A DNA stretch of 64,000 nucleotides from positions 72,065 to 136,064 of the forward strand of contig JAUCBJ010009060.1 in assembly GCA_032718475.1 (NCBI GenBank). The letters run 5' to 3'. Below are positions 15,046 through 55,369 of this stretch, one piece after another (the first letter of the stretch is position 1; every line of letters starts with the position of its first letter). The DNA is from Nemertoderma westbladi. Its lineage: Eukaryota; Animalia; Xenacoelomorpha. Under the pieces are notes generated by a model. The model had not been told where the DNA came from. It did no database searches and saw only the letters and a list, made by a program, of their open reading frames with translations. Both the position numbers and the translations under genes were made by a program.

Positions 15046-17055
15046 ATGGAGAAAGGGATACAAGGAGAGCCGAGATGGGGATATGATATCCAAGAGGAGG
15101 CAGCAGCGCCATTCGAAAGATTTGGAGCCAAGGACTACACTATATTTGGTATAAAGGAATTATCGGAAAGTACAGCGAAACTCGCGAGAACTAAATATGA
15201 CTCAAATGTATTAAAGAGAAGACAAAACGCATTAAACGAAAGAATCGAAAGTTTGCGCAAAACCTTCAATGAACTTTACCCGTACGACGCTTTGTGTGAT
15301 ACGGGAGACATTAGCGAAGACCCCGATACTGAAATTAGTCGTTTGTATCATACCATGCAATACCTGAAGGCGCACGAACCTATGCCCGCGGTACGCAGAT
15401 GAATTCGATGGAATGCATCTTTACAGACGAACTCGAGGGGACGATAGAGAAACCAAGGAAGCATTTTCAGTTTATAAACTTTATTATCAATGCGGTTCTT
15501 GTATGCGCGAACAACGAAATGCGATTCCGATGCGTTTGAATAAGGAAAATCCCGAACCGATATTGGCGAGGTGTTCGAACCATCAACAACTATGTTACCC
15601 TATGAAGGAGAACGTATCGTGGAGATTACGGATGAATCACGGCAGACGCGCGCGCCTATCGGTCACCTTGGTGATGATTTCGAAGTAACTACTACGATCG
15701 CTGACGATCCTTTAGAGGAACTTCTTGAGATAGAAAGGAACCTCCCGAAGAAATCTCAGACGGAGATTCGACAACTTGAAGCAACAGATGCTATAGTTTG
15801 TATACAACCTTCAGAAACCTACCAACCCATAGATCCAGATGATTACGATTATAGTGTGGGAGGAAGCGCTCGACCGATTGGAGATCTTATATACGAACGA
15901 GTGTGGTACCCTGCCAATACGATGTGTGGTAAATGTGGCGTCGCTGGACATCATATGACAAAGTGCAGTGGAAAGCACATTACTACGACTCAGCTAATCT
16001 GTGGATGGTGTGGGGATCAAGGGTCTCATACCTTTTATACTTGCTGGAGATTTATGGCTCAATGTACTTATTGCAATATAAAAGGACATCGAGCATCTGA
16101 ATGCCAACTAAGAGACATACCTTATGAACACGAATCTGTAAAACTCGTGAGGAAATTATTTGATGAGTGGGAAGATTTAGCCGACGAACATGTATCGGCA
16201 CAAAGAAGACGATTTCCGATGAGGGCGCATCTTGGATTTTGGGCGGTAAATCCCCAAACGATGATGTCGGAAGGATACATCTCCGCTATGCCCCAATATG
16301 ACGAACTTATCGAGGTAGTCGATATTTTGCCCCACGACAGCGGATTCCGAGTAGTGCGCGAGTATCTACTACAGATTCACCCGGATAACAAAAACACGTG
16401 GAATTTTCAGAAAGTCGTTAATCGCATTACGTATGGTGAATTCGATCGTTTCCGAACTGAAAAGCGGAATAAAGGAGCTTGGTTAACCGTCGCATGGGCG
16501 TACCGAGCCGCGTTTTACCATAAACGTATACGAGCGAGCGTATTCGAGGAAGAGGAGGTCCTAGAGGCGACGAATATACCAGCCACTCCGGTTGCGCCGT
16601 CTGCACGTCACCCTCGGGAGGACGGACAGGGTAGGATCATACGGGTCCAGAAAGTGGGCCAACAATTAAAGAAAATTATTAATATAGAAGAACGCAAGGG
16701 AGTTGAGCCGACCATTCGAGTTACTCGGGATACGGTATCGCTTCCTAGAGAACCAGTAGGAGGATCGGGACATACACCAGCTGATCAACAGGGGGCGCAA
16801 GCTACTCTTGGGTCTGCGTCGTCCGCTTCTCGCGCGTTCCCAGACGTTCTACCAACTGTAGTGACAACTGATCGGTCACGAGGAATCGGTCGAGGTTTTG
16901 GGATGCCAAATAGACGAATTTGCGAGGAAATAGTCGCACCGTCTCTCAACGTCCAAACGAAACCAGTGACTCGCCCCACGAGTCCCATATCGCGAGCAAA
17001 GTCACCTGTGCGCAGTTTTCGAGGACGCGGCAGGGCTCGATCCACTAAGCGATAA
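15046..17055 (+). pseudogene. Disrupted ORF2 of BEL copy 1 (exonuclease domain deleted)
   Basis: Matches 30584-34309 with a frameshift near 15395 and a 1717-bp deletion at 15592/15593 (equivalent to 31130-32846). Confidence 0.92.
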
Positions 17056-17126
17056 AAGGGAGGGCAAGGGTGGACGGAAGACTCGTGAGCCTTTCTTATG
17101 ATTTGTGATTTATTTGAATTATATTT

Positions 17127-17365
17127 ATATTTAGTAAGTTTTGTATTCTGGAAAACTCATATTTAGTAAAACTTATATTTAGTAAAACTTATATTTAGTA
17201 AAACTTATATTTAGTAAGACTTATATTTGTAAAACTTATATTTAGTAAGACTTATATTTTGTAAGAATTTATATTTTATATTTGTGATTATTCCGAACTT
17301 ATGCAATTTATATTATTCCGAACTTATGCAATTTATATTGTTCCGAATATTATGCAATTTATATT
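17127..17365. repeat. AT-rich 16-bp and 25-bp minisatellites in BEL 3' UTR (counterpart 34380-34620)
   Basis: ATATTTAGTAAAACTT repeats and TTATTCCGAACTTATGCAATTTATA repeats; copy numbers differ between the two elements. Confidence 0.75.
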
Positions 17366-17926
17366 TTATAAGCAGTATTTGTATTTACAGTGAAATAGAA
17401 AGTAAGAGTAGATGGAAGACTCGTGGGCCTTTCTTATAGTTTCATTTGTAAAGTGTTATATTTTGTATTTAGAAAGTTTTATAGTCAGAAAGTTTTGTGC
17501 TTAGAAAGACTCATATTTGTAATTATTCCAAACTTATGCAATCTACATTTAGGTACGAAAGTATTTGTAATTACTTGAATTTATGCAATATTTGAGATGC
17601 AATAGTAGATGGAAGACTCGCGAGCCTTTCTTATTGTTTTCATTTATTTGTATTTGTAATTGTTTGAATTTATGCAATATTGAGATGCAATAGATTTATA
17701 TTGGTGAATTTAATTTAGATTTATATTGTACTTACTTAGTAAAGCCTTAAATACGTAAAGTTTGAATTTGTAATTATTTTTGTATCGAATCATTACGTAG
17801 AAAGGAAGTATTATTTGAAATTTAATTGTAAATATGTAAGTACGCCCTAAGTATTCTATAGTTTGATTGATTATTGGTGAAAACCGTATATTTTATGCAC
17901 GATAATATCCTGTTTTCATGGAGCGG

Positions 17927-19816
17927 TATAGAATTATATTCCCTAAATGCCGTGGATTTTCAAAATTTTATTTTATTCGAATTAACTTTGTAAAAGATTG
18001 CTTTGAGTCCTCATTTGTATTTGTTATATCTATTGTACGCCTATTGGTCAAGTGGTTCAGTAGCTCAGTCGGTAGAGCGTTGGAAATTATATGTGTAGTA
18101 GGTATTGAGTTCGAATCCTAGTAAGTGCGAATTATTTTTTGTGCAGAATTTCAACTCATTTAAATTAACCGCTACAAATTAATTGCATTTGTCTGTACCA
18201 ATGAGACTGTAGTTATTTGATTGTAACCAATGTCGTGCAAGTTATATATTAGCTGGACCAATAGCTATCTTTAAAAACCTGTTAGAACCTATAGAACAAT
18301 CGAGAATTTTCTCGATTGATTGCAGCACAAATTTGCTATATAAAGGTGCGATTTGTTCATTAGTTATACCTCTCAGATTATCTTATCTTATCAATATTCT
18401 GTCGTGCTTAGTTTATTTCAGATTACATTGTATTATAATTATATCTTCTGTAATAAAGTCAGAATTATCGCTAATCTGCTTTTCTATCTGTTTTACCATG
18501 ATTCACTACGGTGAACCCAACCTAAGGGACAGGATGGCCGGCTAGAGATCGGGCCGCAGCAATGAACGGGAACATCGGGGGAATGTAGACCAGAGACAAC
18601 CCGCAATACCATCTTGAGTTATTCGCCCATCGCCTGAAAGGTTAGACAGCGTTCGACGCCTTGCTACCTAAGTGTAAGACCAAAAGATCAAAAGGTAGAA
18701 GTAGTGACACGCTGTGAGCCTAAAATTACATCTTAGGGACTGTACTGTCTTGATTCAGGAAAAACCACAGTAGACCTTCATATTCCTACGGGGGGGAGAG
18801 GGAAAGAGCAGGCAGATACTAGTACGCAGATAGGACGTAGGCACACCGGTACGAAGCATACAAATTGGTAGGGTGCAGCAAACTGTACGCCTAACTCTTG
18901 CTAAGTGCAGGTGTGTGTGCGACTATTTGTAGTACGACAGTGTCCATTGCATTAGAACTTGTAGGCTAGGGGGGTTGCTGTGTTTTCACCTGAATTGGGA
19001 TTGTACCGTTCAGGCGGTAGGGCAGTTTACAGCTAGGCGCAAATAAATTGAGGCTATTAGGGATACTAACATCTACCGTGTCCCCGCCAACGCCCTAATA
19101 GGAAGTTACCCGGACTACCTGGGTGACTAAAATTCTAGATAGGAGCCAGGATAGCTATTAGTAACTGTACGCCTACAGTAGTAAACTAACACATCTCTTC
19201 TTAGTATCAGGGACCTGGTACCTAAAATTGCCGAATTCTGGGCGTAGCATTAACCTTATGCCTGAATTTGAGTCCTGGAAATACGCAAGAGGGGAAGGAA
19301 CCTTATCATTCGTGAGTATTGGACCTACAAGTTACAAAATTAGAATATTCGTAAAATGCACACCGTACCCAGTAATTATATATGTGAAGGAGCAAAACTG
19401 TTTTTGACCGTTCAGAATTAACACACGCGCGTTAGAAATTATTTACACCTCAAAATATATAAAATTAACTTTCGTCCTTACTGTGCTTTGCCCGCTAGTT
19501 AGACATCTCCAAATCTCTGCCTGTACCTAGCTAGCGTCCCTTCGCCCAACCATATAAATCACACCGCGGCAAAGTATACGAGCCCCTTAGTCCGTCAGTG
19601 AGTCAGCCTGATTTTAGGATTCGCTGCGCGGGATTTTGTTTTATCGAAGTTTGTCTGCTCGTAGACTGTTTTCTGCCTCACCGGTTATAAGAGATCGATA
19701 CTGCAATATATTCGCTTACTTAGAGTTTACTGTTTTGGTGAGAAGGTCGGATTTATGATTTGATTCACAAACTTTACAGTAGGATATTGCAGGTATTGTT
19801 ACTGTCTCTTCGAATA
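17927..19816 (+). repeat. LTR2 (shared: 3' LTR of copy 1, 5' LTR of copy 2)
   Basis: Direct repeat preceded by 3' UTR/PPT and followed by the same 5' leader as LTR1. Confidence 0.9.
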
Positions 19817-20622
19817 GTAGGAATATGTTTTACTGAACTACGGTTCGGTAGGACTAAAGTTATTTGAAAATTTTGTATTTTGAGGTAAAAATTTATATTT
19901 GATTAGCTAAGTGCTAATTTTTTGAAATAAAATTTGATTTGAACCGCGTGTAAAATATTTTGGAATTGAATACCGGTGTTTAAAAGGGTTTAAATACCAT
20001 ATTGTACCGGTACAAAATTTTCGTAAAGTAAAACCTAACTCTTTTGTTTTTCAGGATTCAGAACTCATTTCTAGACTGTAACGGGAGCAAGACCGTGTTT
20101 AGCAAGTTTGGGAGATAGATAACTCAACAACTTTGGTTGGGAAAATCGCGCTTCGTCCGCAACGTTAAAAACGGAAAGGTTCACGTCCGGTTTGTATCTG
20201 GGAATCTGTTTTTCTGGAGAATTATTGGAGTGGGTGAGTTCGAAAAGTTGCATAAATAAGTTAGGCATTACCGTATTAGTTAAAATTATTGTGGGTTCCA
20301 CTGTCTCAAGTATTTATGCATTCCGTATGATTTCTTTGTTCATTGCTGAATTAGTCCGTATTATTGTATTTAATTTACCTTTTGATAACGCATATCGTTA
20401 TCCGATTTATTTGTTATAAAATTGGCCGCTAGGCTAATTTTATTATATACTTATTCCGTGACATTTATTTGCTGTAAAATTGGCCGTTTAGGCTAATTTT
20501 ATCCATCTGCTATAAAATCGGCCGGTAGGCTAATTTTATATGACTGTAATTAGTACCGTTTAGATAAACTACGGTAAGTTTGATACTTTGACACTCACTT
20601 TACTTGACTTACAACTACCGAA

Positions 20623-23600
20623 ATGAGTGACAAACAAGACTATACGAAAAATACACAAACCGACTATGACTCATGCGACGGAGATAAGTCAGCAGCGGAA
20701 GAACAACAGGGGAAGACTCGCGAGCCTACCGAACCTACACCGTGTGCGTCACCAGTACATCCAACGGGAGTACCGGATGCCGTAGTACGAGGCGACGGCA
20801 GGACCGAGGACTTTCTAACTGTTCCGCAACCTAGATACAGGGAAACGGACATGGTAAGTTCAGTAGGAAGCCAGGAGAGCGTGGTTAGAAGCGTCGGTGG
20901 ATACATGGCGCATATTACCAGGAGTATTGGAGAAGGCCAACGCATATTAGACGGGTTGACCGCTCCGATGTCTCGATTCGAGTTCTACACCCTCCAGGTT
21001 AGAGTACAGAGTAAAGTATATAAGTCCGTAGATAATCTAGTTGGCCTACAAGATCTAGCTAGACAGAGACAGGACATGGATACTCAACTTAGAATCCTCG
21101 AGAAACTAATGATCGCTAGAGAGAAACTGATTCAGTTTAAGTCGACGATTAGACAGATACAACAGGAACAAGCGGACCAGTTGTTAGGTGAGTCAGTTTC
21201 GGACGAATTATTACAGCCCGAGGAAGAACAGGAACTGTACCGACTGGATGGACAATTGAAACATCTGACGGACCACTTACGTATGTGCGGCGAGGATGTC
21301 GGAGATTGGGAAACCGTGCCGGAATATACGAGGGAAACTTCACCCGTACGAATCGAATCGGCACCGGGAATACTGAATCAATCACTGGTGAGTATTCGCA
21401 GCGAGATTAACGAGGTAAGCATGGTCACGTCAGAAGTTGCTCGACAACAGCAACAGTTCTACAGACAGCAACACGAGATGGAAGAACAAACTCAACTGCT
21501 AATGATACAAACAGCGGTAGAGGAAGAGAAAATACGTGTTGCGAATGTAGCGAGAATCTCTCATCTGCAGGAACAAGCCGAACTCGAAGCGGCCGAAATG
21601 GAAAGGTTAGAGTTGGACATTGCCCAACAAGCGGCAGCGGCCGAGTTAGCGCAACGAACGGCAACAGCCGAGTTAGAGCGACAAACGGCAGCGGCAGCGG
21701 CAGCGGCCGAGTTAGAGCGACAAACGGAAGCGGCAGAGTTAGAAAGAAAAAGGTTAGTTTCAGAAGCCAGAGTCGAGATGAAGACACGGCAAATAAAAGC
21801 CCAACAAGCGATACGACAAGCAGAGTTCGAGGCGCAACAACAACAAACGGAACAACGAGAAAAGGAAGTTAAACTTCGTTTCGAACTTGAGAAAAGGGCG
21901 AGAGAATTAGCCGAAACCAAGGAAAATCTGGATCTTCTAGCCCGTGATCGATCGATGAGATCTCGTGACGGACATGATTTGGACCAGATAGAGGTAAGGC
22001 ACCGCCAAATCCAGGAACGACTAAAGGAAGGTTCGATAGGAGCACCTGGACGGGAACGACAATTAGTAAAGGACTTATGTCAAAGATTCCCTCAAGTAAC
22101 CCCTATGTTCGCACCAGTTACAACTAAGGAACCTGTTTCGATTGCGGGTAGTAGTGATATTTCTCCTATCCATGGTGCGACGGAACACAGGTTTGTTATT
22201 CCGGACAAGTTTACACCGCCAAGAGCAACGTCGTCGCCTATTCCGAAAGTCAAGGTAAGTAACCCGCCGATTACGGATCGTAGTAGTTTGTTGACTGGAC
22301 CTGCACTACTGACGACTAAACAGGTGAGTCCACCGTCGACACCTAAACCCGTTACACACTACGCTTACCCAATGACGTTTCGACCTACAAGGCCGGTAGA
22401 TTCAAATGCTGTCATTCGCCCACCGGTTCAGTTTACATCGCAATCTACGACTTCGAGGAAGACTTGTGAGCCTACCGAACAACGGAGACCAGTGGATACG
22501 CGACCGTTCAACCAGTTTACATCGCAATCTACGACTTCGAGGAAGACTTGTGAGCCTACCGAACAACGGAGAACAGTGGATACGCGACCGTTCAATCAGT
22601 GTACATCGCAATCTACGACTTCGAGGAAGACTTGTGAGCCTACCGAACAACGGAGACTAGTGGATACGCGACAGTTCAACCAGCGTGCATCGCAATCTAC
22701 GACTTCGAGGAAGACTTGTGAGCCTACCGAACAACGGAGACTAGTGGATACGCGACAGTTCAACCAGTTTACATCGCAATCTACGACTTCGAGGAAGACT
22801 TGTGAGCCTACCGAACAACGGAGACTAGTGGATACGCGACAGTTCAACCAGTTTACATCGCAATCTACGACTTCGAGGAAGACTTGTGAGCCTACTGAAC
22901 AACGGAGACTAGTGGATACGCGACAGTTCAACCAGCGTGCATCGCAATCTACGACTTCGAGGAAGACTTGTGAGCCTACCGAACAACGGAGATCAGTGGA
23001 CGATGTTACGAAACGAAACGTGAGAATTCGTACGACGCAACGGACGCGAGCACATCGACCTCCATATCCAGATGATAGTAGTACTTCGAGCGAATCGGAT
23101 TACCCGAAACGCGAGGTATTTAGAACAGGGGCGGCCGATGAATATAAACGCGAGCGTTCAGACAACTCCTTTATAGACAATCCTCCACAGAATACACCAA
23201 CACAGAAGGCGTTACAACCAACGGACGCAATCAGTACTCAACAATTCGCCGACATCATGCGACCAGTTGTTAACAAGTTGGCTCAGATCGAGGAGCGTCT
23301 GGAGGAAGTTCAAACCGATAGTTCGAGGAACACTGAATTCGAACACAATAGACACCCGAAGGAACCACAAAGACCGGTACCTTCAAAACACCCATCGTAT
23401 CAGGGAAAAGCGCCAAGAAGGGATATCAACCAGATTACCAACCAAGGACGCGAAACTCTGAACGTTGCCGAGGAGATAGCGAAATTCGCAGCCAGACAGG
23501 GATTGCCGGTGCAACAACCACCGAAGTTTTCTGGTAGCTCAAAACACTGGCATACATTCGTAGACTATATCGAATCTCAGATCGCCGTGTGCGCCTTTAC

Positions 23601-26600
23601 ATCACGGGAGAAGTTTAATTACCTGCTTCAAACGTTGTCAGGAGAACCTAAACGTTTGGCAGAGACCTTCGTTGGTGTACCGGACGCCTTCGAACTAGCG
23701 TACGATCGTTTAACTTCGATATACGGAGGTACAGTCAGTATGGCCAGGTCAGTAATAGAGGAACTCTGTAAGGGAGGGGCTATTACTAAACCCGTCGACT
23801 TATTAAAACTGGCTGACGAGATAAGGAACGCTATCACTACTTTAAGATCCATTGGACAACTTGACTACGGGAATACCCCTACAGTCCTATTAAAGATCAT
23901 AGGACGACTCCACCATCGACTTCGTCGGGAGTGGAGAAAGATCGAATACCAGCGAGAAGAGCGGGGTGGATTCTTAAAACTGGAGGATGTGTACCTTTTG
24001 ATATCCAGGGAGGCAGTAGTAGAAACTCGATCCAACTACACTGACCAGCACATCGTGGCAGAAGGAATCACATTGCCATCCTCCAACCGGCAAAAACCCC
24101 AGACAACATCCACTAAGACGGCCACTTACACCACACCAACGGAATCACGACAATTCTCGGACGGTAGTAGGGTATCTGCGCCCATTGGGATAAAACAGAC
24201 GAGACAACAACTCAGTACCGACTTCAGCGGCTGCCAATACTGCGAGCATCTAGGCAAGCGGTATATCGGTCACAAGTTGAGGGGTTGTCGACAGTTTCGC
24301 GAGTTGAACTCGGAAGAACGACGGCTGCAGATACGGCCACTGGACTCTTGTTGGCGGTGTACGCGACACGGACACGTTCGCAAGGATTGCCCAAATACCG
24401 ACACTTGTCCATCCTGTGGACGCAACCACGACGGTCTGCTCCACACAGACAGCCACACGCCGACAAAACGCTTCGCCAGAGAACACCCGGAAGCAGCAGC
24501 GAGATGTGATGCGGCCTACAGAAAACGAGAATCGAAAACGACTCCAACCTTCGTGACCCATATTGAGGATTGCTTCTCAGAACAATCCGGATCGTCGGAC
24601 GAAGAGTTAGAAGACGACGACGAATATTCCAATGGAGACGAACAACCGTCGATCGCGCTTCTGACCACTGACCAACTGAAGGGATTCAGTGTAATCCCGA
24701 TTAAGATTACTGGCACAAAGGGGAGTAAGAGAATTTACGCGATCCTTGATTCAGCCTCATCCCACAGCTATGTGGACGAAAAGATAGCTGACGTCGTGAC
24801 GGATCTCAAACAAGGTAAGCGCGTCAGTTACACCGTGAGTAGTATGCACGGACAGCGTGCAATACCAGTGACACGAGTCAAGTTAAACTTAGACTCTCTT
24901 CTTCCGAAATCGCAACACAGCGAGAGGGAGAGGTCTTTGTTACCCTTCAAGGATTTGACCTTTGCGGCCACCAAAGACTTTAGTAACTTACTAGGTCCGG
25001 TCCCAGAACAATCCTTGGAGGACCGTAAGTATTTCAGACACCTTGGTGTACCCGAATGTCCTGTCAATTATAGATCGGTAGCCATGCTGATCGGGACAGA
25101 CCAATTCAACCTACACCAAGTGTGGGAAACCAGACCATCGGCAGTTGTAGCGGGAAACGCATACGCCTGCAGAACGCCGATAGGGTGGTATACTCGAGCG
25201 CCTGTGCGCACACTAAACGTAAGTGACGAGGAAGACGATGTACAAAGTACATGTAGTTTACTAACTACAAATTCAATCCATTCCTTTTCACACGATGTGG
25301 ACCATACTACACTACAGTCGACAAAACATGACAGACGTGTAACTAGTATGATAAGTAGTCACAAGGAGCAGCTAATCCACAAGGTGAGTTTAGAACTTGG
25401 GGAGAAGACGAGTCAGCTAGAGATTCCATCGACGACAGATGATAGGCTTGCGAGTCTACCTACCCCAACAACCTCAACAATACCCATCGATATCGATGAT
25501 GACGTGTTGAGAAATCATCAAGTGGAACAAGCTGCACTGGACAAAGAATTAACGGAGAAGACTATCAGGTGGTTAGAACAAGATACAGCTGAACCTGGTA
25601 GCTACGAACCTTGTATGTCGGAACAGGAGAAACAAGCTCTGAAGATCATGGAAGATACTATCCGCCAGACGAAAGACGGACATTATGAGGTGGGGATGTT
25701 ATGGCGTAGCCAAAGTCCTAAACTTATAAACAACTACCCACTGGCTTTAAGACGTCTACACTCAATACGGCAACGTCTATTAAAGGACGAGAAAGCCCAT
25801 CTGCAGTACAACACTCAGATGGAGACGTATTTGACTAAGGGATATGCTATCCGAATGACTAACCCAGAGATAGTGACTAACCAGACATACTACCTGCCAC
25901 ATCACTATGTGAGACATCCCGACAAACCAGATAAAGTACGTGTAGTCAATGATTGTGCGGCTCTATTTGAGGGAATGTCCCTCAATAGTGAGTTGATGGA
26001 TGGACCAAACATGAATAATTATCTTATGGGGGTGATTATGCGCTTCCGTCAGCGTCAAGTAGCCTTTACTTGCGACGTTGAAGCGATGTTTCACCAAGTG
26101 AAAGCGTTAGAGCGAGACAGAGACAGTTTGCGGTTCCTCTGGTATCCGGAAGGAGACTTAAGTCTACCACCAGCGACTTACCAAATGCAAGTTCGCGTTT
26201 TCGGTGCCAGAGACAGCCCAAACTGCACGATGTACGCCCTAAAACAAGCCGCTAGAGATCAGAAACACCTATATGACCCAGAGATAATTAGGATTGTGGA
26301 GCGTGACTTTTACGTTGACGACGGTTTACAGAGTTGCGACACAGTAGAACGTGCTACAACAGTAGCACATCAATTACGGGACTGCTTAGCGGGCGGAGGT
26401 TTTAACCTCACCAAATTCGCCTCAAACAGTGCCGAATTAGTAGACTCATTCGGAACGACTGAGCGTGGAGGTGGTGACATAGACCTAGAGTTCGAACCAC
26501 TACCGACGACCAAGGTGTTGGGGCTCTTTTGGGACCCAAACACGGACAACTTCCGAGTGAAGGTGAGACTGGACAGTCAAGAGAACACACTGACAAAGAG

Positions 26601-29600
26601 ATCATGCTTGTCAAAATTGAGCCGATTGTTCGATCCGTTAGGATTCATCAGTCCAGTGATACTGCAAGCCCGCATTTATATGCGCAGTATTTGGAAGGTT
26701 GGACTAACATGGGACGAGCCGATCTCATCAGACCAAGTGGACTTATGGAAGACCTGGGAGGCGGAATTATCTTCGCTAGAGGATTATTCCATACCCAGAG
26801 TTTACTTTCCATTACAAACTACATTTCCTGACAACTTGGAATTACATTGTTTTTCTGACGCCAGTGACAACGGTTTTGGTGTGGCAGCGTACTTGCGCAG
26901 ACAAGTAGACTCAGAAGCATTCGATGTTTCGCTCATTACTTCTAAGGCAAAAACAATGCCTACTAAGTATATGACGACACCACGAGCTGAGCTACAAGCC
27001 GCAACCCTGTCAACCACCATCGTGAACCTTATACAGACAGAATTACAGTCAAGTTTACAGATATTTTATTGGACTGACGCGACGTTGGTTTTATTTTACA
27101 TAAACAACGACACACTTGAATTCAAGACATTCGTAGCTAACCGTCGCGCAGAAATTCTAGACCGTTCAATAAAAGAGGATTGGCGACATTGTCCCGGACC
27201 ACAAAACCCAGCTGATATTGCGTCGCGAGGAATGATGCCCGAGGAATTCTGTAAACCGGAAAACAAAGAATTTTGGCAACACGGACCCCAATTCTTGCAG
27301 AAATCGACACAAGATTGGCCTCCGTTATACGACAACAAATCTAATACTATCCCTAAGGACGCCGAAATCAAGAAACCAAAAAAGGGGAAGGCAAAGAAAA
27401 AGACGACGGCGACAAAACTCAAGAAAAAACCGAAGGCGAAATGGAAAGATATAACTTCAAAGGTCAAGAGAGGAAGACTTGCGAGCCTTTCTACACCAGA
27501 CATATCGCCAGACGGTCAACCAGACACGTTACTAGACGATCAACCAGACGTTTTGCCAGACATATCACAAAATGTTCTACCAGACACTAGTGACATACTG
27601 ACAAACAGTAAAGCCGCAGTTTCCCTATTGGAGCGGCCTTCTATTGACAAACAACCAGATGCGTTACCAGACGTATCACCAGACACATTACTAGACGGTC
27701 AACCAGACGTTTTGCCAGACATATCACAAAATGTTCTACCAGACACTAGTGACATACTGACAAACAGTAAAGCCGCAGTTTCCCTATTGGAGCGGCCTTC
27801 TATTGACAAACAACCAGATGCGTTACCAGACGTATCGCCAGACACGTTACTAGACGGTCAACCAGACGTTTTGCCAGACACGTCACTAGATAATTCGCCG
27901 GATGTTCCGCGAAACATTTTACCAGACATGTCACAAAATGTTCTACCGGACATTAGTAATGTATCGACTAACAGTAAAGCCGCAGTTTCCCTATTGGAGC
28001 GGCCTTGTATTGACAAACTACCAATTTTGACACACTTGAGCAACCATAAGCATGGTGAAACCTCATGTATTACAGATGTGGGTAGTACCTACGCTAATGT
28101 AAATACAGGTGTTACTTTGCGCTCAAGAGACATACCGAACTTGCAACCTATGGTGAGACCTGGGATTAATGTCGGCAGAAAAATAAGTTTACCGAAACCT
28201 GCTGACCCCATAGAGTTCAAACCACCATTAACGATCGACTTACAAAGTACCGACAATCAAGGTAAGAAGACGAAGAAGGACAAATTACTTGTAGACCCGG
28301 ACGGATCAACAGTCAACAAGGGAATACTTACCGGCGGACCCGTGGGCCCTTCTAGTAATTCAAAACCTTCCAAAATCTCCATTGACTTACCTGATGACGT
28401 CACAAATACTCACATCGACCGGATTGTAAACTTAACAGACTCTTGGACAAACGCTTGCCGAAAATTAGCGTGGATTGTACGTTTCGTACAATACGTTAAA
28501 GGCAAACGTGACTTTACACGTCGACTTACATTGGCTGAGATTGACAGGTGTGAGATTAAATTAATTCGCCATTACCAACTGCGATATTTCGCGCGCGAAT
28601 TCACATCTATAAATCAAGGTCAACCAATCAAGTCGTCACCAATACTGAGTTGGAGTCCGATTATTTATAATGGCTTAATTTGTCATAAATCACGGCTTCA
28701 AAACATTGACTTTAACACAAACTTTAGATACCCAATAATAATACCCCAACATCACAAACTACAACGTGCAATGATACTGGACGCACATTTACATCTGAAA
28801 CATGCTGGAAGACACCACTGTCTTTCTTACTTACGTACAAGATTTGTATTGATTAGACCTAGTAAAGCGTTAAGTTCAGTGACACGTACGTGTATTATTT
28901 GTAAAAAGGTACATTCTAGAATAGGTACCCAAGAAATGAGTGAACTACCACAAGCACGACTTCAAGCATTCAGACCACCTTTTACAGAGACTGGAATTGA
29001 TTGCTTTGGTCCCATACATACGAAACGTGGACGTATACTAGTAAAACGCTGGGGACTGATTTTCACATGTATGTCCAGTAGGGCAGTTCATATTGAACGT
29101 GTGATGGATCTTTCCACCAACGCGTTTATACTAGCACTGCGGCGATTTATCGCTAGACGCGGACTAGTAAAATGCTTGTACTCAGACCAAGGGACAAACT
29201 TTGTTGGTGCTCGGAATGAGATTGCTAGAGCTTTTAAGAAATTAGATCATGATCAAATCTCGAACGAACTACAACCTCACAAGATTGTTTGGAAGTTTAA
29301 TCCTCCAGATAGTCCTTGGAGAGGCGGAGTCTGGGAGAGACTGATTAGATCTATAAAGACAGCCATGGCAAAGGTCATTCCAGTAAACCACATATTGACA
29401 GACGACCAACTGACAACACTGTTTGTTGAAATCGAGGCAATACTAAATACTAGACCAATAGTATTAGTACCCGATGACAAACAATCTCAGTTTGCTTTGA
29501 CACCGGCACACCTGCTTATGCAGGCACCGACCACATTGACACCTATTTCTATTCCAATAGAAAGCGACAGCTACGGTAGAAAAGCGTGGAAAATCACGCA

Positions 29601-29922
29601 ACTACTGGCTAACAAATTCTGGGAAATATGGCAAAACCATTATTTGCCCTCTATTTCTGCCAGAACAACTTGGTATAATAACACCCGCGCATTAAAGCCG
29701 GGAGATCACGTGCTGTTAGCGGAAGTGAATCTAAAAAGACGCTTCTGGATAACAGGTGTAATTTTAGCCACACATCCATCTATGGATGGAGTGACAAGAA
29801 CTGTGACGGTACGGACAATTGACGGTCGTACAGTAGACAGACCGACTCAACGTCTCGTACTTCTTGAAGAGACTCATAACGAGTCTGGAGACTACAAATC
29901 TCCACCTAATACTAGTAAATAA
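20623..29922 (+). CDS. gag-pol: BEL/Pao gag-pol polyprotein (gag, aspartic protease, RT, RNase H, integrase)
   Basis: PPKFSG...W..F gag motif; three BEL-type knuckles (CQYC..H..C, CWRCTRHGHVRKDC, CPSCGRNHDGLLH); protease AILDSAS; RT YLPHH, DVEAMFHQV, FYVDD; RNase H LHCFSDAS, PRAEL, WTDA, NPADIASRG; integrase HHCC, GIDCFGP, SDQGTNF, GGVWER. Confidence 0.98.
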   Translation: MSDKQDYTKNTQTDYDSCDGDKSAAEEQQGKTREPTEPTPCASPVHPTGVPDAVVRGDGRTEDFLTVPQPRYRETDMVSSVGSQESVVRSVGGYMAHITRSIGEGQRILDGLTAPMSRFEFYTLQVRVQSKVYKSVDNLVGLQDLARQRQDMDTQLRILEKLMIAREKLIQFKSTIRQIQQEQADQLLGESVSDELLQPEEEQELYRLDGQLKHLTDHLRMCGEDVGDWETVPEYTRETSPVRIESAPGILNQSLVSIRSEINEVSMVTSEVARQQQQFYRQQHEMEEQTQLLMIQTAVEEEKIRVANVARISHLQEQAELEAAEMERLELDIAQQAAAAELAQRTATAELERQTAAAAAAAELERQTEAAELERKRLVSEARVEMKTRQIKAQQAIRQAEFEAQQQQTEQREKEVKLRFELEKRARELAETKENLDLLARDRSMRSRDGHDLDQIEVRHRQIQERLKEGSIGAPGRERQLVKDLCQRFPQVTPMFAPVTTKEPVSIAGSSDISPIHGATEHRFVIPDKFTPPRATSSPIPKVKVSNPPITDRSSLLTGPALLTTKQVSPPSTPKPVTHYAYPMTFRPTRPVDSNAVIRPPVQFTSQSTTSRKTCEPTEQRRPVDTRPFNQFTSQSTTSRKTCEPTEQRRTVDTRPFNQCTSQSTTSRKTCEPTEQRRLVDTRQFNQRASQSTTSRKTCEPTEQRRLVDTRQFNQFTSQSTTSRKTCEPTEQRRLVDTRQFNQFTSQSTTSRKTCEPTEQRRLVDTRQFNQRASQSTTSRKTCEPTEQRRSVDDVTKRNVRIRTTQRTRAHRPPYPDDSSTSSESDYPKREVFRTGAADEYKRERSDNSFIDNPPQNTPTQKALQPTDAISTQQFADIMRPVVNKLAQIEERLEEVQTDSSRNTEFEHNRHPKEPQRPVPSKHPSYQGKAPRRDINQITNQGRETLNVAEEIAKFAARQGLPVQQPPKFSGSSKHWHTFVDYIESQIAVCAFTSREKFNYLLQTLSGEPKRLAETFVGVPDAFELAYDRLTSIYGGTVSMARSVIEELCKGGAITKPVDLLKLADEIRNAITTLRSIGQLDYGNTPTVLLKIIGRLHHRLRREWRKIEYQREERGGFLKLEDVYLLISREAVVETRSNYTDQHIVAEGITLPSSNRQKPQTTSTKTATYTTPTESRQFSDGSRVSAPIGIKQTRQQLSTDFSGCQYCEHLGKRYIGHKLRGCRQFRELNSEERRLQIRPLDSCWRCTRHGHVRKDCPNTDTCPSCGRNHDGLLHTDSHTPTKRFAREHPEAAARCDAAYRKRESKTTPTFVTHIEDCFSEQSGSSDEELEDDDEYSNGDEQPSIALLTTDQLKGFSVIPIKITGTKGSKRIYAILDSASSHSYVDEKIADVVTDLKQGKRVSYTVSSMHGQRAIPVTRVKLNLDSLLPKSQHSERERSLLPFKDLTFAATKDFSNLLGPVPEQSLEDRKYFRHLGVPECPVNYRSVAMLIGTDQFNLHQVWETRPSAVVAGNAYACRTPIGWYTRAPVRTLNVSDEEDDVQSTCSLLTTNSIHSFSHDVDHTTLQSTKHDRRVTSMISSHKEQLIHKVSLELGEKTSQLEIPSTTDDRLASLPTPTTSTIPIDIDDDVLRNHQVEQAALDKELTEKTIRWLEQDTAEPGSYEPCMSEQEKQALKIMEDTIRQTKDGHYEVGMLWRSQSPKLINNYPLALRRLHSIRQRLLKDEKAHLQYNTQMETYLTKGYAIRMTNPEIVTNQTYYLPHHYVRHPDKPDKVRVVNDCAALFEGMSLNSELMDGPNMNNYLMGVIMRFRQRQVAFTCDVEAMFHQVKALERDRDSLRFLWYPEGDLSLPPATYQMQVRVFGARDSPNCTMYALKQAARDQKHLYDPEIIRIVERDFYVDDGLQSCDTVERATTVAHQLRDCLAGGGFNLTKFASNSAELVDSFGTTERGGGDIDLEFEPLPTTKVLGLFWDPNTDNFRVKVRLDSQENTLTKRSCLSKLSRLFDPLGFISPVILQARIYMRSIWKVGLTWDEPISSDQVDLWKTWEAELSSLEDYSIPRVYFPLQTTFPDNLELHCFSDASDNGFGVAAYLRRQVDSEAFDVSLITSKAKTMPTKYMTTPRAELQAATLSTTIVNLIQTELQSSLQIFYWTDATLVLFYINNDTLEFKTFVANRRAEILDRSIKEDWRHCPGPQNPADIASRGMMPEEFCKPENKEFWQHGPQFLQKSTQDWPPLYDNKSNTIPKDAEIKKPKKGKAKKKTTATKLKKKPKAKWKDITSKVKRGRLASLSTPDISPDGQPDTLLDDQPDVLPDISQNVLPDTSDILTNSKAAVSLLERPSIDKQPDALPDVSPDTLLDGQPDVLPDISQNVLPDTSDILTNSKAAVSLLERPSIDKQPDALPDVSPDTLLDGQPDVLPDTSLDNSPDVPRNILPDMSQNVLPDISNVSTNSKAAVSLLERPCIDKLPILTHLSNHKHGETSCITDVGSTYANVNTGVTLRSRDIPNLQPMVRPGINVGRKISLPKPADPIEFKPPLTIDLQSTDNQGKKTKKDKLLVDPDGSTVNKGILTGGPVGPSSNSKPSKISIDLPDDVTNTHIDRIVNLTDSWTNACRKLAWIVRFVQYVKGKRDFTRRLTLAEIDRCEIKLIRHYQLRYFAREFTSINQGQPIKSSPILSWSPIIYNGLICHKSRLQNIDFNTNFRYPIIIPQHHKLQRAMILDAHLHLKHAGRHHCLSYLRTRFVLIRPSKALSSVTRTCIICKKVHSRIGTQEMSELPQARLQAFRPPFTETGIDCFGPIHTKRGRILVKRWGLIFTCMSSRAVHIERVMDLSTNAFILALRRFIARRGLVKCLYSDQGTNFVGARNEIARAFKKLDHDQISNELQPHKIVWKFNPPDSPWRGGVWERLIRSIKTAMAKVIPVNHILTDDQLTTLFVEIEAILNTRPIVLVPDDKQSQFALTPAHLLMQAPTTLTPISIPIESDSYGRKAWKITQLLANKFWEIWQNHYLPSISARTTWYNNTRALKPGDHVLLAEVNLKRRFWITGVILATHPSMDGVTRTVTVRTIDGRTVDRPTQRLVLLEETHNESGDYKSPPNTSK
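22429..23000 (+). repeat. 84-bp coding VNTR in gag (7 copies; 3 copies at 7376-7612)
   Basis: 28-aa unit QFTSQSTTSRKTCEPTEQRRxVDTRxFN. Confidence 0.92.
27500..28020 (+). repeat. ~159-bp coding repeat in RNase H-integrase linker (3 units; 2 in copy 1)
   Basis: PDTLLDGQPDVLPDISQNVLPDTSDILTNSKAAVSLLERPSIDKQ repeated. Confidence 0.85.
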
Positions 29923-30520
29923 TTAGGAGTTCACAAATAGATTTCCACGTACCTGTACACCGTAGTAAGGACAGCGGTAGAATTCCATTGTCTTTATATG
30001 TGAACATTGAGGGTAGTACCCTTATGTGTCACATAGGAGCGGGATTTGTAGGTATAAGAAATGGAATTCTACTTGGAACTCACAATATTGAGACATTTTC
30101 GAAATTTTAGACAATCCATTTGGATTTGAAAAATTTTTAAATTTTCTCCAGTGAATAGATTTCAGGGTACAGTCGGGTGGAACTTAAAATTAGAGAAACA
30201 AGAGAGGAAGACTTGCGAGCCTTTCTTAAAAATTTTAATTAAATTTTACACGGTCTTGTTTCAATAAGTTACGTCAAAAAATAGACTCCCCTGTATTTAT
30301 TTCTAATTCTTGATTGCTTATTTTCTGATAATAGTTTGGGATCAAAAAGTGAGTATTTTAGACTCACAGCCAGTTTAGCCCAAATTCGTTTTTATTTCGG
30401 CAAAAAATTTTAGATAAGAAGCAGCGTGTCATTAAAGAAACCCTAGATCTTAGGCTATGGGTAGGAGGTTAGAGCGTTGTCGAGCCCAAAGGGCAGACGA
30501 AACTCTCACGTCTCCTCACA

Positions 30521-30552
30521 ACTAACTACAAACTCTGTTGTATTCCCTCTAG
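30521..30552 (+). promoter_or_regulatory. Putative splice acceptor for ORF2 subgenomic mRNA
   Basis: ACTAAC branch point, pyrimidine tract TATTCCCTCT, then AG ~30 nt before the ORF2 ATG; identical in copy 1 (14983-15014). Confidence 0.55.
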
Positions 30553-30583
30553 TAGTAATGATTATGTAACTACACCCCTAATT

Positions 30584-33500
30584 ATGGAGAAAGGGATACA
30601 AGGAGAGCCGAGATGGGGATATGATATCCAAGAGGAGGCAGCAGCGCCATTCGAAAGATTTGGAGCCAAGGATTATACTATATTCGGTATAAAAGAATTA
30701 TCGGAAAGTACAGCGAAACTCGCGAGAACTAAATATGACTCAAATGTATTAAAGAGAAGGCAAAACGCATTAAACGAAAGAATCGAAAGTTTGCGCCAAA
30801 CCTTCAACGAACTTTACCCGTACGACACTTTATGTGATACGGGAGATATTTGCGAAGACCCCGACACTGAAATTAGTCGTTTGTATCATACCATGCAATA
30901 CCTGAAGGCGCACGAACCTATGCCCGCGGTAAGAGATGAATTCGATGGAATGCATCTTTACAGACGAACTCGAGGGGACGATAGAGAAACCAAGGAAGCA
31001 TTTTCAGTTTATAAACTTTATTATCAATGCGGTTCTTGTATGCGCGAACAACGAAATGCGATTCCAATGCGTTTGAATAAGGAAAATCCCGAACCGATAT
31101 TGGCGAGGTGTTCGAACCATCAACAACTACGCTACCAGGAAGGAGGGTATCCTTTATCGAATCCATATCATTCATTTGCTATGACCGGACCAAAGGCGGG
31201 AGAAACTGTCATTTACCCACCTAAGGTTGTTGAACCCGATGTATTTGAACTTACGCTGGACGAGGCAAATCAGTCAACCCGCGAAAAGAAAGAAGCTCTT
31301 AGCCTATACAGAGCCTACAAGGCTTTCGAGAAAGGTGAGATGGAAGAATGGGGTGGAAGACTCGCGAGCCTACCTTGCCATTGGACGTCACACGATCAAA
31401 CTCCAGCTAAGGAGATGACACCGGAAGTTTTCGAGAGCATAAACTTTGCTCAAAACGTTATTCAGAGACTACAGATTGCATCCCCGGAGAGGACAAGAGA
31501 AATGCAACCGTATAGTACTTCAACTACGAAACCATTGAGTACGACACTCAACTTTCCTATTAGTATACCAGTCCGACAGGATACGACGTACGAAATACCC
31601 ATCGTGGATCATCCAGAAATCATTTCAAACTTGGAGTTTCTTCCTGCAGTTGTTTTCAGTGATATGAGTAAGATATATGATTTACGTAGACATATTACTC
31701 AAAAGGTCGTGTACAACGTTCCACCTCATATTCAAGACTTCAAGGAACTGGATAGAGCTGGTGCCGATATAGCTCCGAGTAATTTGAAGGGATATTTAAC
31801 CAAGACGATTCGTTTATGGATTGGAACCGGAACCTTCGAGTCGGATACAGATATTGCCGCGGATTGGCGAGGTAAGGTTATTAGCTTCGAAGATGATAAG
31901 GATATAGAGAAGATTTGGCAACCTTCGGAAGAATTGTTGGACGAATGGAATAGAACGTTTAGATCGTTTCAGGAAAATGGTTACATGTTTTACGATAACG
32001 AGGGCGGCAGTCATCAGCAGAGTTTGACTTCTAAGACTATACAGATTAGAGCGGCGGACGGAGTCTTGCACGTTTTCAGTAGACAGAGGAGCGACAAACG
32101 AATGCCGATACCTCCAGCGAATACAAAGCGACACCATCTTATCACCGACATAGTAAAGAAGATGGACCAAGCTTGTAATATTGACGCTAGAATGTTACCG
32201 AAGATGGTAAGAAACATGATTTTAGATAAAACTGTTGTAAAGATTGGATCAGGAGTAAGGGAGGACTTAATTAGCGACTTCGCCGGCATGACGGACAGCG
32301 ATGACCGACTACCGACACCTTACGTCGACACTCGACCTCTTATTTTGTGGTCTATAGAACAGGGATATTTTCGTGAGTATAATACTCAGAAGACTGGAAC
32401 TGGATACATTTCCTACCTGTTATTCAATTGGGATTATAAGGAAAATAAGAGAAACAAGTATATTGAAACTTATGGAGAAGGTGATACTCCAGATATGAGT
32501 GAGTTTGAATCACAGCTTAAATGGAGAGGATGCGTGTATTGGGCTATTACGTCACCTCCAAGAGCGGTCTTACAATATTATTTAGCAATAGAGTCGTCAG
32601 TGAATGTTTGCCTAATCGCCGACATTGTGTCTCGGACTCTCAAAAGACATCCACTTTGTCTCGGAGAAGATCATACTTTCTACATGGAAGGGAGAATTCG
32701 TACCGACGTGTTTAGACAATTCCTTGAACCCTTCTACAACTCCGACGCTCAGTGTAATGCCTTTACTCGAGCAGGATTTAGTATATTTCGAGACGTGTAT
32801 CTTCGCTGTGCGGGATCTCTTATCGAAAGACCATCTATGTTTACATTGTTACCCTATGAAGGAGAACGTATCGTGGAGATTACGGAAGAATCACGGCAGA
32901 CGCGCGCGCCTATCGGTCACCTTGGTGATGATTTCGAAGTAACTACTACGATCGCTGACGATCCTTTAGAGGAACTTCTTGAGATAGAAAGGAACCTCCC
33001 GAAGAAATCTCAGATGGAGATTCGACAACTTGAAGCAACAGATGCTATAGTTTGTATACAACCTTCAGATACCTACCAACCCATAGACCCAGATGATTAC
33101 GATTATAGTATGGGAGGAAGCACTCGACCGATTGGAGATCTTATATACGAACGAGTGTGGTACCCTGCCAATACGATGTGTAGTAAATGTGGCGTCGCTG
33201 GACATCATATGACAAAGTGCAGTGGAAAGCACATTACTACGACTCAGCTAATCTGTGGATGGTGTGGGGATCAAGGGTCTCATACCTTTTATACTTGCTG
33301 GAGATTTATGGCTCAATGTACTTATTGCAATATAAAAGGACATCGAGCATCTGAATGCCAACTAAGAGACATACCTTATGAACACGAATCTGTAAAACTC
33401 GTGAGGAAGTTATTTGATGAGTGGGAAGATTTAGCCGACGAACATGTATCGGCACAAAGAAGACGGTTTCCGATGAGAGCGCATCTCGGATTTTGGGCGG

Positions 33501-34309
33501 TAAATCCTCAAACGATGATGTCGGAAGGATATATCTCCGCTATGCCCCAATATGACGAACTTATCGAGGTAGTCGATATTTTGCCCCACGACAGCGGATT
33601 CCGAGTAGTGCGCGAGTATCTACTACAGATTCACCCGGATAACAAAAACACGTGGAATTTTCAGAAAGTCGTTAATCGCATTACGTATGGTGAATTCGAT
33701 CGTTTCCGAACTGAAAGGCGGAATAAAGGAGCTTGGTTAACCGTTGCATGGGCGTACCGAGCCGCGTTTTACCATAAACGTATACGAGCGAGCGTATTCG
33801 AGGAAGAAGAGGTCCTAGAGGCGACAAATATACCAGCCACTCCGGTTGCGCCGTCTGCACGTCACCCTCGGGAGGACGGACAGGGTAGGATCATACGGGT
33901 CCAGAAAGTGGGCCAACAATTAAAGAAAATTATTAATATAGAAGAACGCAAGGGAGTTGAGCCGACCATTCGAGTTACTCGGGATACGGTATCGCTTCCT
34001 AGAGAACCAGTAGGAGGATCGGGACATACACCAGCTGATCAACAGGGGGCGCAAGCTACTCTTGGGTCTGCGTCGTCCGCTTCTCGCGCGTTCCCAGACG
34101 TTCTACCAACTGTAGTGACAACTGATCGGTCACGAGGAATCGGTCGAGGTTTTGGGATGCCAAATAGACGAATTTGCGAGGAAATAGTCGCACCGTCTCT
34201 CAACGTCCAAACGAAACCAGTGACTCGCCCCACGAGTCCCATATCGCGAGCAAAGTCACCTGTGCGCAGTTTTCGAGGACGCGGCAGGGCTCGATCCACT
34301 AAGCGATAA
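30584..34309 (+). CDS. Accessory ORF2: DEDDy-type 3'-5' exonuclease domain + 3 CCHC zinc knuckles + RG-rich tail
   Basis: FYDNEG (ExoI), IQIRAADGVLHVF, LPKMVRNMILDKTVVKIGSGVRED (ExoII), YVDT, W...P....QYYLAIE (ExoIII); knuckles CSKCGVAGHHMTKC, CGWCGDQGSHTFYTC, CTYCNIKGHRASEC; no signal peptide or TM segment seen. Confidence 0.85.
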   Translation: MEKGIQGEPRWGYDIQEEAAAPFERFGAKDYTIFGIKELSESTAKLARTKYDSNVLKRRQNALNERIESLRQTFNELYPYDTLCDTGDICEDPDTEISRLYHTMQYLKAHEPMPAVRDEFDGMHLYRRTRGDDRETKEAFSVYKLYYQCGSCMREQRNAIPMRLNKENPEPILARCSNHQQLRYQEGGYPLSNPYHSFAMTGPKAGETVIYPPKVVEPDVFELTLDEANQSTREKKEALSLYRAYKAFEKGEMEEWGGRLASLPCHWTSHDQTPAKEMTPEVFESINFAQNVIQRLQIASPERTREMQPYSTSTTKPLSTTLNFPISIPVRQDTTYEIPIVDHPEIISNLEFLPAVVFSDMSKIYDLRRHITQKVVYNVPPHIQDFKELDRAGADIAPSNLKGYLTKTIRLWIGTGTFESDTDIAADWRGKVISFEDDKDIEKIWQPSEELLDEWNRTFRSFQENGYMFYDNEGGSHQQSLTSKTIQIRAADGVLHVFSRQRSDKRMPIPPANTKRHHLITDIVKKMDQACNIDARMLPKMVRNMILDKTVVKIGSGVREDLISDFAGMTDSDDRLPTPYVDTRPLILWSIEQGYFREYNTQKTGTGYISYLLFNWDYKENKRNKYIETYGEGDTPDMSEFESQLKWRGCVYWAITSPPRAVLQYYLAIESSVNVCLIADIVSRTLKRHPLCLGEDHTFYMEGRIRTDVFRQFLEPFYNSDAQCNAFTRAGFSIFRDVYLRCAGSLIERPSMFTLLPYEGERIVEITEESRQTRAPIGHLGDDFEVTTTIADDPLEELLEIERNLPKKSQMEIRQLEATDAIVCIQPSDTYQPIDPDDYDYSMGGSTRPIGDLIYERVWYPANTMCSKCGVAGHHMTKCSGKHITTTQLICGWCGDQGSHTFYTCWRFMAQCTYCNIKGHRASECQLRDIPYEHESVKLVRKLFDEWEDLADEHVSAQRRRFPMRAHLGFWAVNPQTMMSEGYISAMPQYDELIEVVDILPHDSGFRVVREYLLQIHPDNKNTWNFQKVVNRITYGEFDRFRTERRNKGAWLTVAWAYRAAFYHKRIRASVFEEEEVLEATNIPATPVAPSARHPREDGQGRIIRVQKVGQQLKKIINIEERKGVEPTIRVTRDTVSLPREPVGGSGHTPADQQGAQATLGSASSASRAFPDVLPTVVTTDRSRGIGRGFGMPNRRICEEIVAPSLNVQTKPVTRPTSPISRAKSPVRSFRGRGRARSTKR

Positions 34310-35180
34310 AAGGGAGGGCAAGGGTGGACGGAAGACTCGTGAGCCTTTCTTATGATTTGTGATTTATTTGAATTTATATTTATATTTGTGTTTATTCCGA
34401 ACTTAAGCAATTTGTATTGTTCCGAATTTATGAAATACGACTTATATTTAGTAAGAATTTATATTTGTAAGAATTTATATTTTATATTTGTAATTATTTA
34501 GAACTTATGCAATTTATATTATTTCGAACTTATGCAATTTATATTATTTCGAACTTATGCAATTTATATTATTCCGAACTTATGCAATTTATATTGTTCC
34601 GAATACTATGCAATTTATATCTTATAAGCAGTATTTGTATTTACAGTGAAATAGAAAGTAAGAGTAGATGGAAGACTCGTAGGCCTTTCTTATAGTTTCA
34701 CTTGTAAAGTGTTATATTTTGTATTTAGAAAGTTTTATAGATAGAAAGTTTTGTGCTTAGAAAGACTCATATTTGTAATTATTCCGAACTTATGCAATCT
34801 ACATTTAGGTACGAAAGTATTTGTAATTACTTGAATTTATGCAATATTTGAGATGCAATAGTAGATGGAAGACTCGCGAGCCTTTCTTATTGTTTTCATT
34901 TATTTGTATTTGTAATTACTTGAATTTATGCAATATTGAGATGCAATAGATTTATATTGGTGAATTTAATTTAGATTTATATTGTACTTACTTAGTAAAG
35001 CTTTAAATACGTAAAGTTTGAATTTGTAATTATTTGTATCGAATCATTACGTAGAAAGGAAGTATTATTTGAAATTTAATTGTAAATATGTAAGTACGCC
35101 CTAAGTGTTCTATAGTTTGATTGATTATTGGTGAAAACCGTATATTTTATGCACGATAATATCCTGTTTTCATGGAGCGG

Positions 35181-37077: not shown

Positions 37078-37265
37078 AGTGTGCTACACGAGTGGTATGT
37101 TATAAGAACGGACAGTGTGCTGCACGAGTGGTATGTTACATGAACAAAATATAGCCACGAGGATCAGCGCATGGAAAAGTACATTGACAAAAGTACGTGG
37201 TCCCTTAAAACTGCACGCGAACTGCCTGTTCAGTAGAAATGGGTTAGATGGGAGAGTAAGCATCA

Positions 37266-55252: not shown

Positions 55253-55369
55253 TATTCTAACCAAATATGAAACTAAAAACCTATACTCTTAGACTCTTGT
55301 TTATTGATTTGGTTAGAATTGTCTTCCATTGTAGCCTGTTCCTTTCCCTCAAATAATAAAATAAAAATA

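Follow-up and report, generated by a model that had tools for sequence, protein, structure and literature searches.

Why does a retrotransposon carry one short, nearly palindromic sequence over and over along its length, always in the same orientation, within genes as well as between them? The question is raised by a stretch of 64,000 nucleotides from Nemertoderma westbladi (contig JAUCBJ010009060.1, positions 72,065 to 136,064 of the forward strand), here termed the window, which contains two tandem copies of a BEL/Pao long terminal repeat (LTR) retrotransposon. Each copy is ~17 kb and the middle LTR is common to both. Copy 2 has gag-pol as one open frame of 3,104 codons followed by a second open frame, designated ORF2; in copy 1, coding is split over several frames and 1.7 kb of ORF2 is deleted. 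The results described below, with all explanations at the RNA level taken together, indicate that the repeated motif is likely a hairpin of the sense-strand RNA that needs a partner to form.

The 17-letter core of the motif, GGAAGACTYGYGAGCCT, has 21 exact matches on the plus strand, 13 in copy 2 and 8 in copy 1, and none on the minus strand; the core is inexact at 17414 (one mismatch) and at 34670 (two). The total comes to 17 sites in copy 2, distributed over 11 loci, and 12 in copy 1 (Table 1). The full 20-letter motif ends with either ACC or TTC and has a YGYG loop (Y, pyrimidine). Neighbouring loci are separated by 0.2 to 2.5 kb. At 25441, copy 2 is without nine letters that copy 1 has, and the leading GGA is lost. 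As the three sites in the 3′-untranslated region (3′-UTR) have common flanks, as do the sites at 27472 and 30206, flank comparison leaves about 8 independent contexts for the 11 loci. A preliminary description of this DNA listed ~15 copies. All of its coordinates are confirmed, its position 25444 being the AGGCT of the site that begins at 25441, and the copies are real, but the count was too low, with 28333/12791, 32895/15641 and the copy 1 units at 7488 and 7572 having been missed. A borderline look-alike at 28807-28826 (E = 0.51), located in the conserved integrase zinc motif, has a fully paired stem and a loop that is not YGYG, and is left out of the site counts.

Profile scan statistics are circular for the sites used in training, and the argument is therefore borne by a structure-only descriptor that specifies a YGYG loop, four pairs of any type and an A opposite a C. 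This descriptor matches copy 2 at 15 positions on the plus strand and none on the minus strand; 100 Markov resamples give 0.29 matches on average. All 15 matches also begin with GG and have the pairs G5-C16 and C7-G14, none of which is demanded. The whole window contains 26 matches, all on the plus strand and all within the element. Neither a fuzzy pattern nor a covariance model identified a site in the 29,793 bases of the window outside the element, 11,618 of which are satellite, and the earlier remark that the motif was not noticed outside the element thus holds within the window. The profile scan gave one weak match there, at 54530 (9.5 bits of 36). By sequence score alone, the site at 28333 is also borderline (9.8 bits, with 0.45 chance matches above 8 bits expected per copy).

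Two of the sites have paired changes. At 32895, the pair formed by positions 8 and 13 is changed from U-A to G-C and, at 28333, this pair is changed to C-G and pair 4-17 to G-C. The A·C mismatch, the YGYG loop and the GG..C frame are retained at both sites. In background words matched for profile score, such double changes have probabilities of 0.0013 (28333) and 0.02 (32895), favouring a predicted hairpin over a double-stranded DNA site. Where positions vary, Watson-Crick and G·U pairs replace one another when the sense strand is read. Pairs 2-19, 8-13 and 9-12 are the variable ones, and of their 33 cells 31 pair on this strand versus 20 on the other. Loop variation consists of T at eight site-positions and A at one (p = 0.04 if the sites are independent), unlike the differences between the two copies, which are balanced (38 CG/TG, 36 CG/CA). 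The fold proposed in the preliminary description, including the replacement of A·C by G·U at 10059/25441, stands as drawn, although its predicted stability is weak.

That description offered a DNA-binding palindrome as the alternative, a site in duplex DNA that might, for example, be recognised by an anti-silencing factor that the element encodes, as for VANC and the VANDAL transposon. A near-palindrome with high sequence identity and poor predicted RNA folding would suit this role, and VANC sites also have one orientation and are amplified in tandem repeats (PMC5735166). The site at 25441 also reads as well inverted. Nevertheless, duplex DNA would not be expected to show changes coupled between the two arms, as at 28333 and 32895, or C/T variation of a one-sided type; together with the sense-strand wobble pattern, these features weaken this alternative. 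The candidate readers encoded by the element carry zinc knuckles, which bind single-stranded nucleic acid, and the LTRs and leader have no site, so that a DNA site now appears very unlikely.

The preliminary description also considered the motif to be constrained as nucleotide sequence and not as protein, and the present data support this. Coding sites lie in two reading frames, four sites are non-coding, and the Gag-Pol sites fall in linkers with almost no homologue coverage: at the six site positions tested, 0-14% of 120 homologues align, with about half of the Gag-Pol protein being covered by most of these homologues. Peptides that the motif could encode occur three times in the 120 homologues, with about 1.5 occurrences expected, which speaks against a recurring peptide (GRLASL or KTxEPT) as the explanation. 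The related proposal, that the sites arose neutrally through recurrent short duplications in the course of reverse transcription, gains from the common flanks of some sites, from seven sites being tandem copies and from the borderline suppression of variation between copies. However, in about 8 contexts identity does not extend beyond the motif, the sites occupy two frames and non-coding DNA, and the double changes retain pairing; an origin of either type is largely refuted and highly improbable. Among eight of the ten 84-bp gag repeat units, variation affects 1 of the 20 columns of the motif and 7 of 64 outside it. Contigs of the family at 30206 have two substitutions in 151 bases, and the one within the motif, a permitted loop T/C change, was counted for the hairpin. 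None of the 40 family variants listed, of 1,154, is within the motif, with fewer than one expected.

Other origins were considered and rejected. Copies of a tRNA primer site should read TGG, but a T precedes only some sites; insertion footprints of 20 letters would disrupt frames; recombination sites are not supported by the joints listed, none of which removes the DNA between two motifs, with 68 further joints outside that listing; and coupled changes would not be retained in small-RNA target sites.

What might such a hairpin do? We consider, with a rough probability of 40%, that the motif may serve as a dispersed and multivalent RNA tag, to which the Gag knuckles would bind so as to select and compact a very long RNA. 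The motif RNA would fold into a small hairpin with a G-C rich stem, the fixed A·C mismatch and the YGYG loop, whose formation in the cell probably needs a protein or a non-canonical A·C pair. The Gs of the loop would then be the contact for the Gag zinc knuckles at many points, and the 17-kb RNA would be picked from host RNA and condensed into particles through many weak contacts rather than through one leader signal. The sites were likely spread by short duplications and by tandem-repeat expansion, and retained at positions that the proteins can accommodate. The progression from folding through binding to packaging is inferred from the binding of a loop G by retroviral nucleocapsid protein (NC) and from the dispersed packaging signals of viruses.

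The spliced RNAs of the element bear directly on this reading. Contigs from run X4, provisionally classed as DNA, join 18640 to 20055 and 20233 to 30553, with GT..AG ends and a good splice context; each joint is present in one contig and is absent from the other three runs. ORF2 is apparently made from spliced RNA. If the introns are real, the leader-spliced gag-pol mRNA retains all 17 sites and the ORF2 mRNA retains 5 of the 17. A retroviral packaging signal (Psi) lies in the 5′ leader and is lost on splicing. Here, neither the descriptor nor the covariance model identified a site in the LTR and leader (17927-20710), and both spliced forms keep sites, which disfavours a packaging signal of the classical kind; packaging was one of the roles named in the preliminary description. 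On this evidence, the motif would tag the RNA of the element generally, with the dose highest on long RNAs, rather than act as a classical leader Psi.

Several results weigh against a Gag-bound tag. The sense hairpins at the 17 sites of copy 2 have predicted energies of only 0 to -4.2 kcal/mol and, in context, a hairpin probability above 0.5 at 3 of the 11 loci; the minus strand is predicted to fold better at 10 of the 11. Overall pairing is near equal on the two strands (83.8% sense, 80.8% minus) because the minus-strand reading turns A·C into G·U. Across sites, covariation falls short of significance, its score being matched by 32 of 500 shuffles, and the 25441 site scores higher inverted (28.7 versus 25.3 bits). 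Suppression of variation at the sites, named in advance as a check, is borderline only: excluding the 9-letter indel at 25441, copies 1 and 2 differ by one change in 200 motif positions with 4.6 expected (p = 0.054). As the leader intron contains no site, the tag cannot separate genomic RNA from spliced gag-pol mRNA, and the ORF2 mRNA is also tagged. The near-identity of the sites contrasts with the degeneracy of known dispersed packaging signals, and the UGCG loop of Rous sarcoma virus (RSV), whose G directly contacts NC, is reported as secondary for packaging (PMC7291142). In addition, the motif is present in none of 80 related BEL loci that have the same Gag-Pol plan, and none of the 61 such loci of at least 5 kb has another dispersed 16-letter family above chance.

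These 80 loci, from metagenomes (523,154 bases), are distant relatives (35-44% protein identity) and mostly short. They contain 11 descriptor matches, six on the plus and five on the minus strand, none with the GG frame, and no match to ORF2; the best covariance model hit has an E-value of 2.9. Clusters of dispersed 16-letter words number at most three in the 61 longer loci, as in the nulls, compared with seven in copy 2. Repeated words in two loci (L072, L076) proved to be LTR pairs or chance. The conservation in related families that the preliminary description had set as a check is thus not seen at this distance, and the motif is, judged from these loci, a novelty of the lineage and not a BEL/Pao trait.

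The reader need not be Gag. ORF2 has acidic motifs near 31991, 32258 and 32579 and knuckles at about 33179-33360. Its distant relatives are two unnamed proteins, P0124 and P0126 (E = 4e-4 and 9e-4), which align with it over the acidic-motif domain, three knuckles and a conserved C-terminal motif; a D-x-E, a D and an acidic position preceded by Y align across the three sequences. Pfam recognises only the knuckles and the rest of the ORF2 family is without a Pfam model. For the best match to a solved structure, 7c42 (E = 0.042), the alignment covers the knuckles and, far more weakly, part of the nuclease region; this entry code occurs once in a paper on trypanosome RNase D (PMC7797062). A Euglenozoan cluster with the plan of exonuclease plus CCHC ranked first in an atlas search, at 0.87 (atlas scores 0.87-0.92), and structure predictions were of very low confidence, with predicted local distance difference test (pLDDT) values of 31 and 28. 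ORF2 is likely a DEDD exonuclease with knuckles, each single search being below threshold. Word-based searches gave no relatives of ORF2, and a query with the ORF2 alignment gave no loci in metagenome contigs. In viral contigs there were no exact matches to the motif, and the Pol and ORF2 queries gave no loci.

With ORF2 as reader, its three knuckles would bind the tag on all RNAs of the element and the exonuclease-like domain would protect, trim, export or localise them, making ORF2 an accessory protein that has a response element of its own. This is rather unlikely but has several points in its favour: the alignment with two proteins over the acidic-motif domain and three knuckles, the three weak searches that point towards an exonuclease plus CCHC plan, the binding of RNA by the knuckles of trypanosome RNase D (PMC7797062) and the apparent spliced-RNA origin, as for CERV of the Cer1 element (PMC10309623). 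Sites are also kept on all three RNA forms, and the 80 related loci are alike in having neither the motif nor an ORF2 match. Against it, the co-occurrence of motif and ORF2 amounts to one family, many of the 80 contigs are of insufficient length to reveal an ORF2, and the domain calls and structure predictions have the low scores given above. A broader proposal, possible though doubtful, is that the 17-fold near-identical hairpin is a private RNA barcode recognised by a knuckle protein of the element itself, perhaps ORF2, so that the retrotransposon would recognise its own RNA, as an RNA counterpart of the VANC-VANDAL system.

A host protein could also be the partner, serving in export, in germ-line transport or in stabilising an RNA with a 5-kb 3′ region. 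The RNA-level evidence applies equally to this explanation, three sites cluster in the 3′-UTR that is common to every transcript, and near-identical sites would suit a fixed host reader. It is nonetheless unlikely, as the motif might then be expected in other elements and is in none of the 80 loci from other hosts, and Rfam 15 has no match in the window at the gathering score or in 34200-37700 at E up to 1.

Finally, the near-palindromes might pair with each other, between genome copies or along one RNA, as dimer links or in a condensate. YGYG is self-complementary under wobble rules, which would account for all four loop positions, and predicted site-to-site duplexes (-8 to -30 kcal/mol) far exceed the hairpins in strength. 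However, such duplexes arise from any near-palindrome. Predicted self-duplexes are at -20 to -24 kcal/mol for CGCG sites but -8 for UGUG sites; the seven UGUG sites self-pair at only -8.2, close to the -8.9 median of background words with equal base composition, and duplexes of 28333 and 32895 with most standard sites are weak (-9 to -13). With 7 of 17 sites having a poorly pairing loop, dimerisation, another early suggestion, is disfavoured and RNA-RNA contacts are quite unlikely. Of the RNA signal originally proposed, the sense-strand hairpin is supported, by the double changes and the wobble pattern; a classical packaging signal and dimerisation are disfavoured.

Copy 2 gag-pol has the Pfam domains Pao peptidase A17, DUF1759, integrase zinc domain and DUF5641, as in BEL/Pao elements, and there are three long flanking direct repeats, each ~1.89 kb. 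Copies 1 and 2 differ by 2.3% over 15,423 aligned positions. Pol has 281 homologues at E up to 1e-30, the nearest being 44% identical. The full length of the element is represented, in many variants, among contigs from three runs of a single organism, and it therefore belongs to a multi-copy family. The coordinates of the sites and of the features that surround them are listed in Table 1.

Table 1. Motif sites and features of the tandem BEL/Pao element; positions are those of the window.
Feature	Coordinates	Strand	Comment
Motif site, ACC type, loop CGCG	20711..20730	+	near gag start
Seven motif sites, loop TGTG (22457, 22541, 22625, 22709, 22793, 22877, 22961)	22457..22980	+	one per 84-bp gag repeat unit
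Variant site, G·U replacing A·C	25441..25460	+	protease-reverse transcriptase linker; this copy scores slightly better on minus strand
Motif site, TTC type, loop TGCG	27472..27491	+	insertion between RNase H and integrase
Motif site, pairs 4-17 and 8-13 changed on both sides	28333..28352	+	A·C and YGYG kept
Motif site, non-coding gap between gag-pol and ORF2	30206..30225	+	sole family variant seen within is loop U to C
Motif site, N-terminal part of ORF2	31355..31374	+	inside stretch deleted from copy 1
Motif site, pair 8-13 U-A to G-C	32895..32914	+	ORF2 linker, exonuclease-like domain to knuckles
Three 3′-UTR sites (34330, 34670, 34867)	34330..34886	+	related flanks
Copy 1, twelve equivalents (5658, 7404, 7488, 7572, 10059, 12090, 12791, 14669, 15641, 17076, 17414, 17611)	5658..17630	+	
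gag-pol open frame, copy 2	20623..29922	+	BEL/Pao; three knuckle-like CxxC motifs starting at 24232, 24349 and 24406
ORF2, copy 2	30584..34309	+	likely DEDD 3′-5′ exonuclease domain and three CCHC-type knuckles
Shared middle LTR	17927..19816	+	~1.89 kb; other LTRs 2871-about 4760 and 35181-37077; zero motif sites
Apparent leader intron	18641..20054	+	GT..AG joint in run X4 contigs; no motif site; putative primer-binding stretch within
Apparent gag-pol intron	20234..30552	+	GT..AG joint in run X4 contigs; removal would leave ORF2 mRNA

LTR elements typically have TG..CA termini, a tRNA primer site beginning TGG and a target-site duplication. None of these is present at the mapped repeat ends, which may be mis-set; the mapped termini are TAT..ATA and the flanks differ between ends. 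U5 would be very long, judging from a TATA-like box near 18337 and an AATAAA near 18452. The 11 letters directly after the mapped LTR end (19817-19827) are the exact reverse complement of 18779-18789 within the LTR (chance for a given 11-mer, 0.00065), a stretch followed by a purine run; LTR 1 has one mismatch. This complementarity resembles self-priming of the Tf1 type, of which we know no description in BEL/Pao elements. A tRNA-like stretch with words resembling the A-box and B-box is present at 18055-18120 and in both other LTRs, with no ARAGORN call, and a hammerhead-like minimal core, with two clear stems, a very short third stem and no Rfam match, lies at 37287-37343, just 3′ of LTR 3. 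Within gag-pol, a 159-bp repeat with 24-bp subunits occupies 27519-27880, in an RNase H-integrase linker that homologues are without. Downstream of the element are 531 copies of a 22-bp satellite (37647-49264), resulting in very long stop-free frames, more arrays with 19-, 22-, 30- and 32-bp units (52904-60750) and, at 60749-63490, a disrupted frame encoding a Ulp1-type protease domain and then a reverse transcriptase, probably a non-LTR element.

How LTR retrotransposons select their own RNA is poorly known (PMC6844567), and abstract-level literature searches surfaced nothing on RNA selection by BEL/Pao elements. Similar searches, mostly of open-access literature, on dispersed or repeated retrotransposon stem-loops, extra exonuclease ORFs and Belpaoviridae packaging, the last query being unspecific, gave no such motif, and the available parts of PMC5035971 and PMC6431247 contain nothing on such motifs. 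As the element described here supplies a 20-letter candidate signal, natural variants that preserve the stem and two candidate readers, the question becomes testable with short RNAs and isolated domains. Such a tag would, if confirmed, extend dispersed-signal assembly to retrotransposons and might explain how 17-kb elements manage their size.

Among known systems, dispersed packaging signals are documented in single-stranded RNA viruses and in the pregenomic RNA of hepatitis B virus (PMC6281560, PMC7612645, PMC8677749). As there, the motif provides many small, weak stem-loops that have a common loop motif and overlap coding sequence, although their presence along the genome-sense RNA is indicated by sequence analysis only and in-context folding is weak. 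The viral signals are degenerate and have been shown to bind coat or core protein, whereas the BEL/Pao motif is a near-identical 20-mer with a fixed A·C, resides in an LTR retrotransposon and is known from sequence alone. The SL-C stem-loop in Psi of RSV offers a parallel for the contact, in that UGCG is among the loops found here, the G at loop position 2 is invariant and the element has CCHC knuckles (PMC7291142). Psi, however, is single-copy and in the 5′ leader, whereas the 17 sites are downstream and also on spliced RNAs.

For ORF2, the bdelloid rotifer LTR elements with a DEDDy ORF3 (PMC5408684) also have an extra ORF after pol that likely encodes a DEDD exonuclease, and trypanosome RNase D (PMC7797062) similarly has an exonuclease followed by CCHC fingers. 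ORF2 differs in belonging to a BEL/Pao element, its similarity to these proteins is sub-threshold, and no repeated RNA motif is reported for them in the available parts of these papers. CERV of Cer1 is likewise an accessory protein of an LTR retrotransposon, made from a spliced mRNA, and it acts on genomic RNA (PMC10309623); the likeness is by description only, and a term search of that paper gave no 'response element', 'cis-acting' or 'stem-loop'. The VANC sites of the plant DNA transposon VANDAL are 9-bp motifs in duplex DNA, located mainly in non-coding regions (PMC5735166). Like the motif described here, they are short, specific to their element, in the same orientation, amplified in tandem repeats and located beside an extra element gene; unlike them, the BEL/Pao motif is a predicted 20-letter hairpin that has coupled changes and lies mostly in coding linkers.

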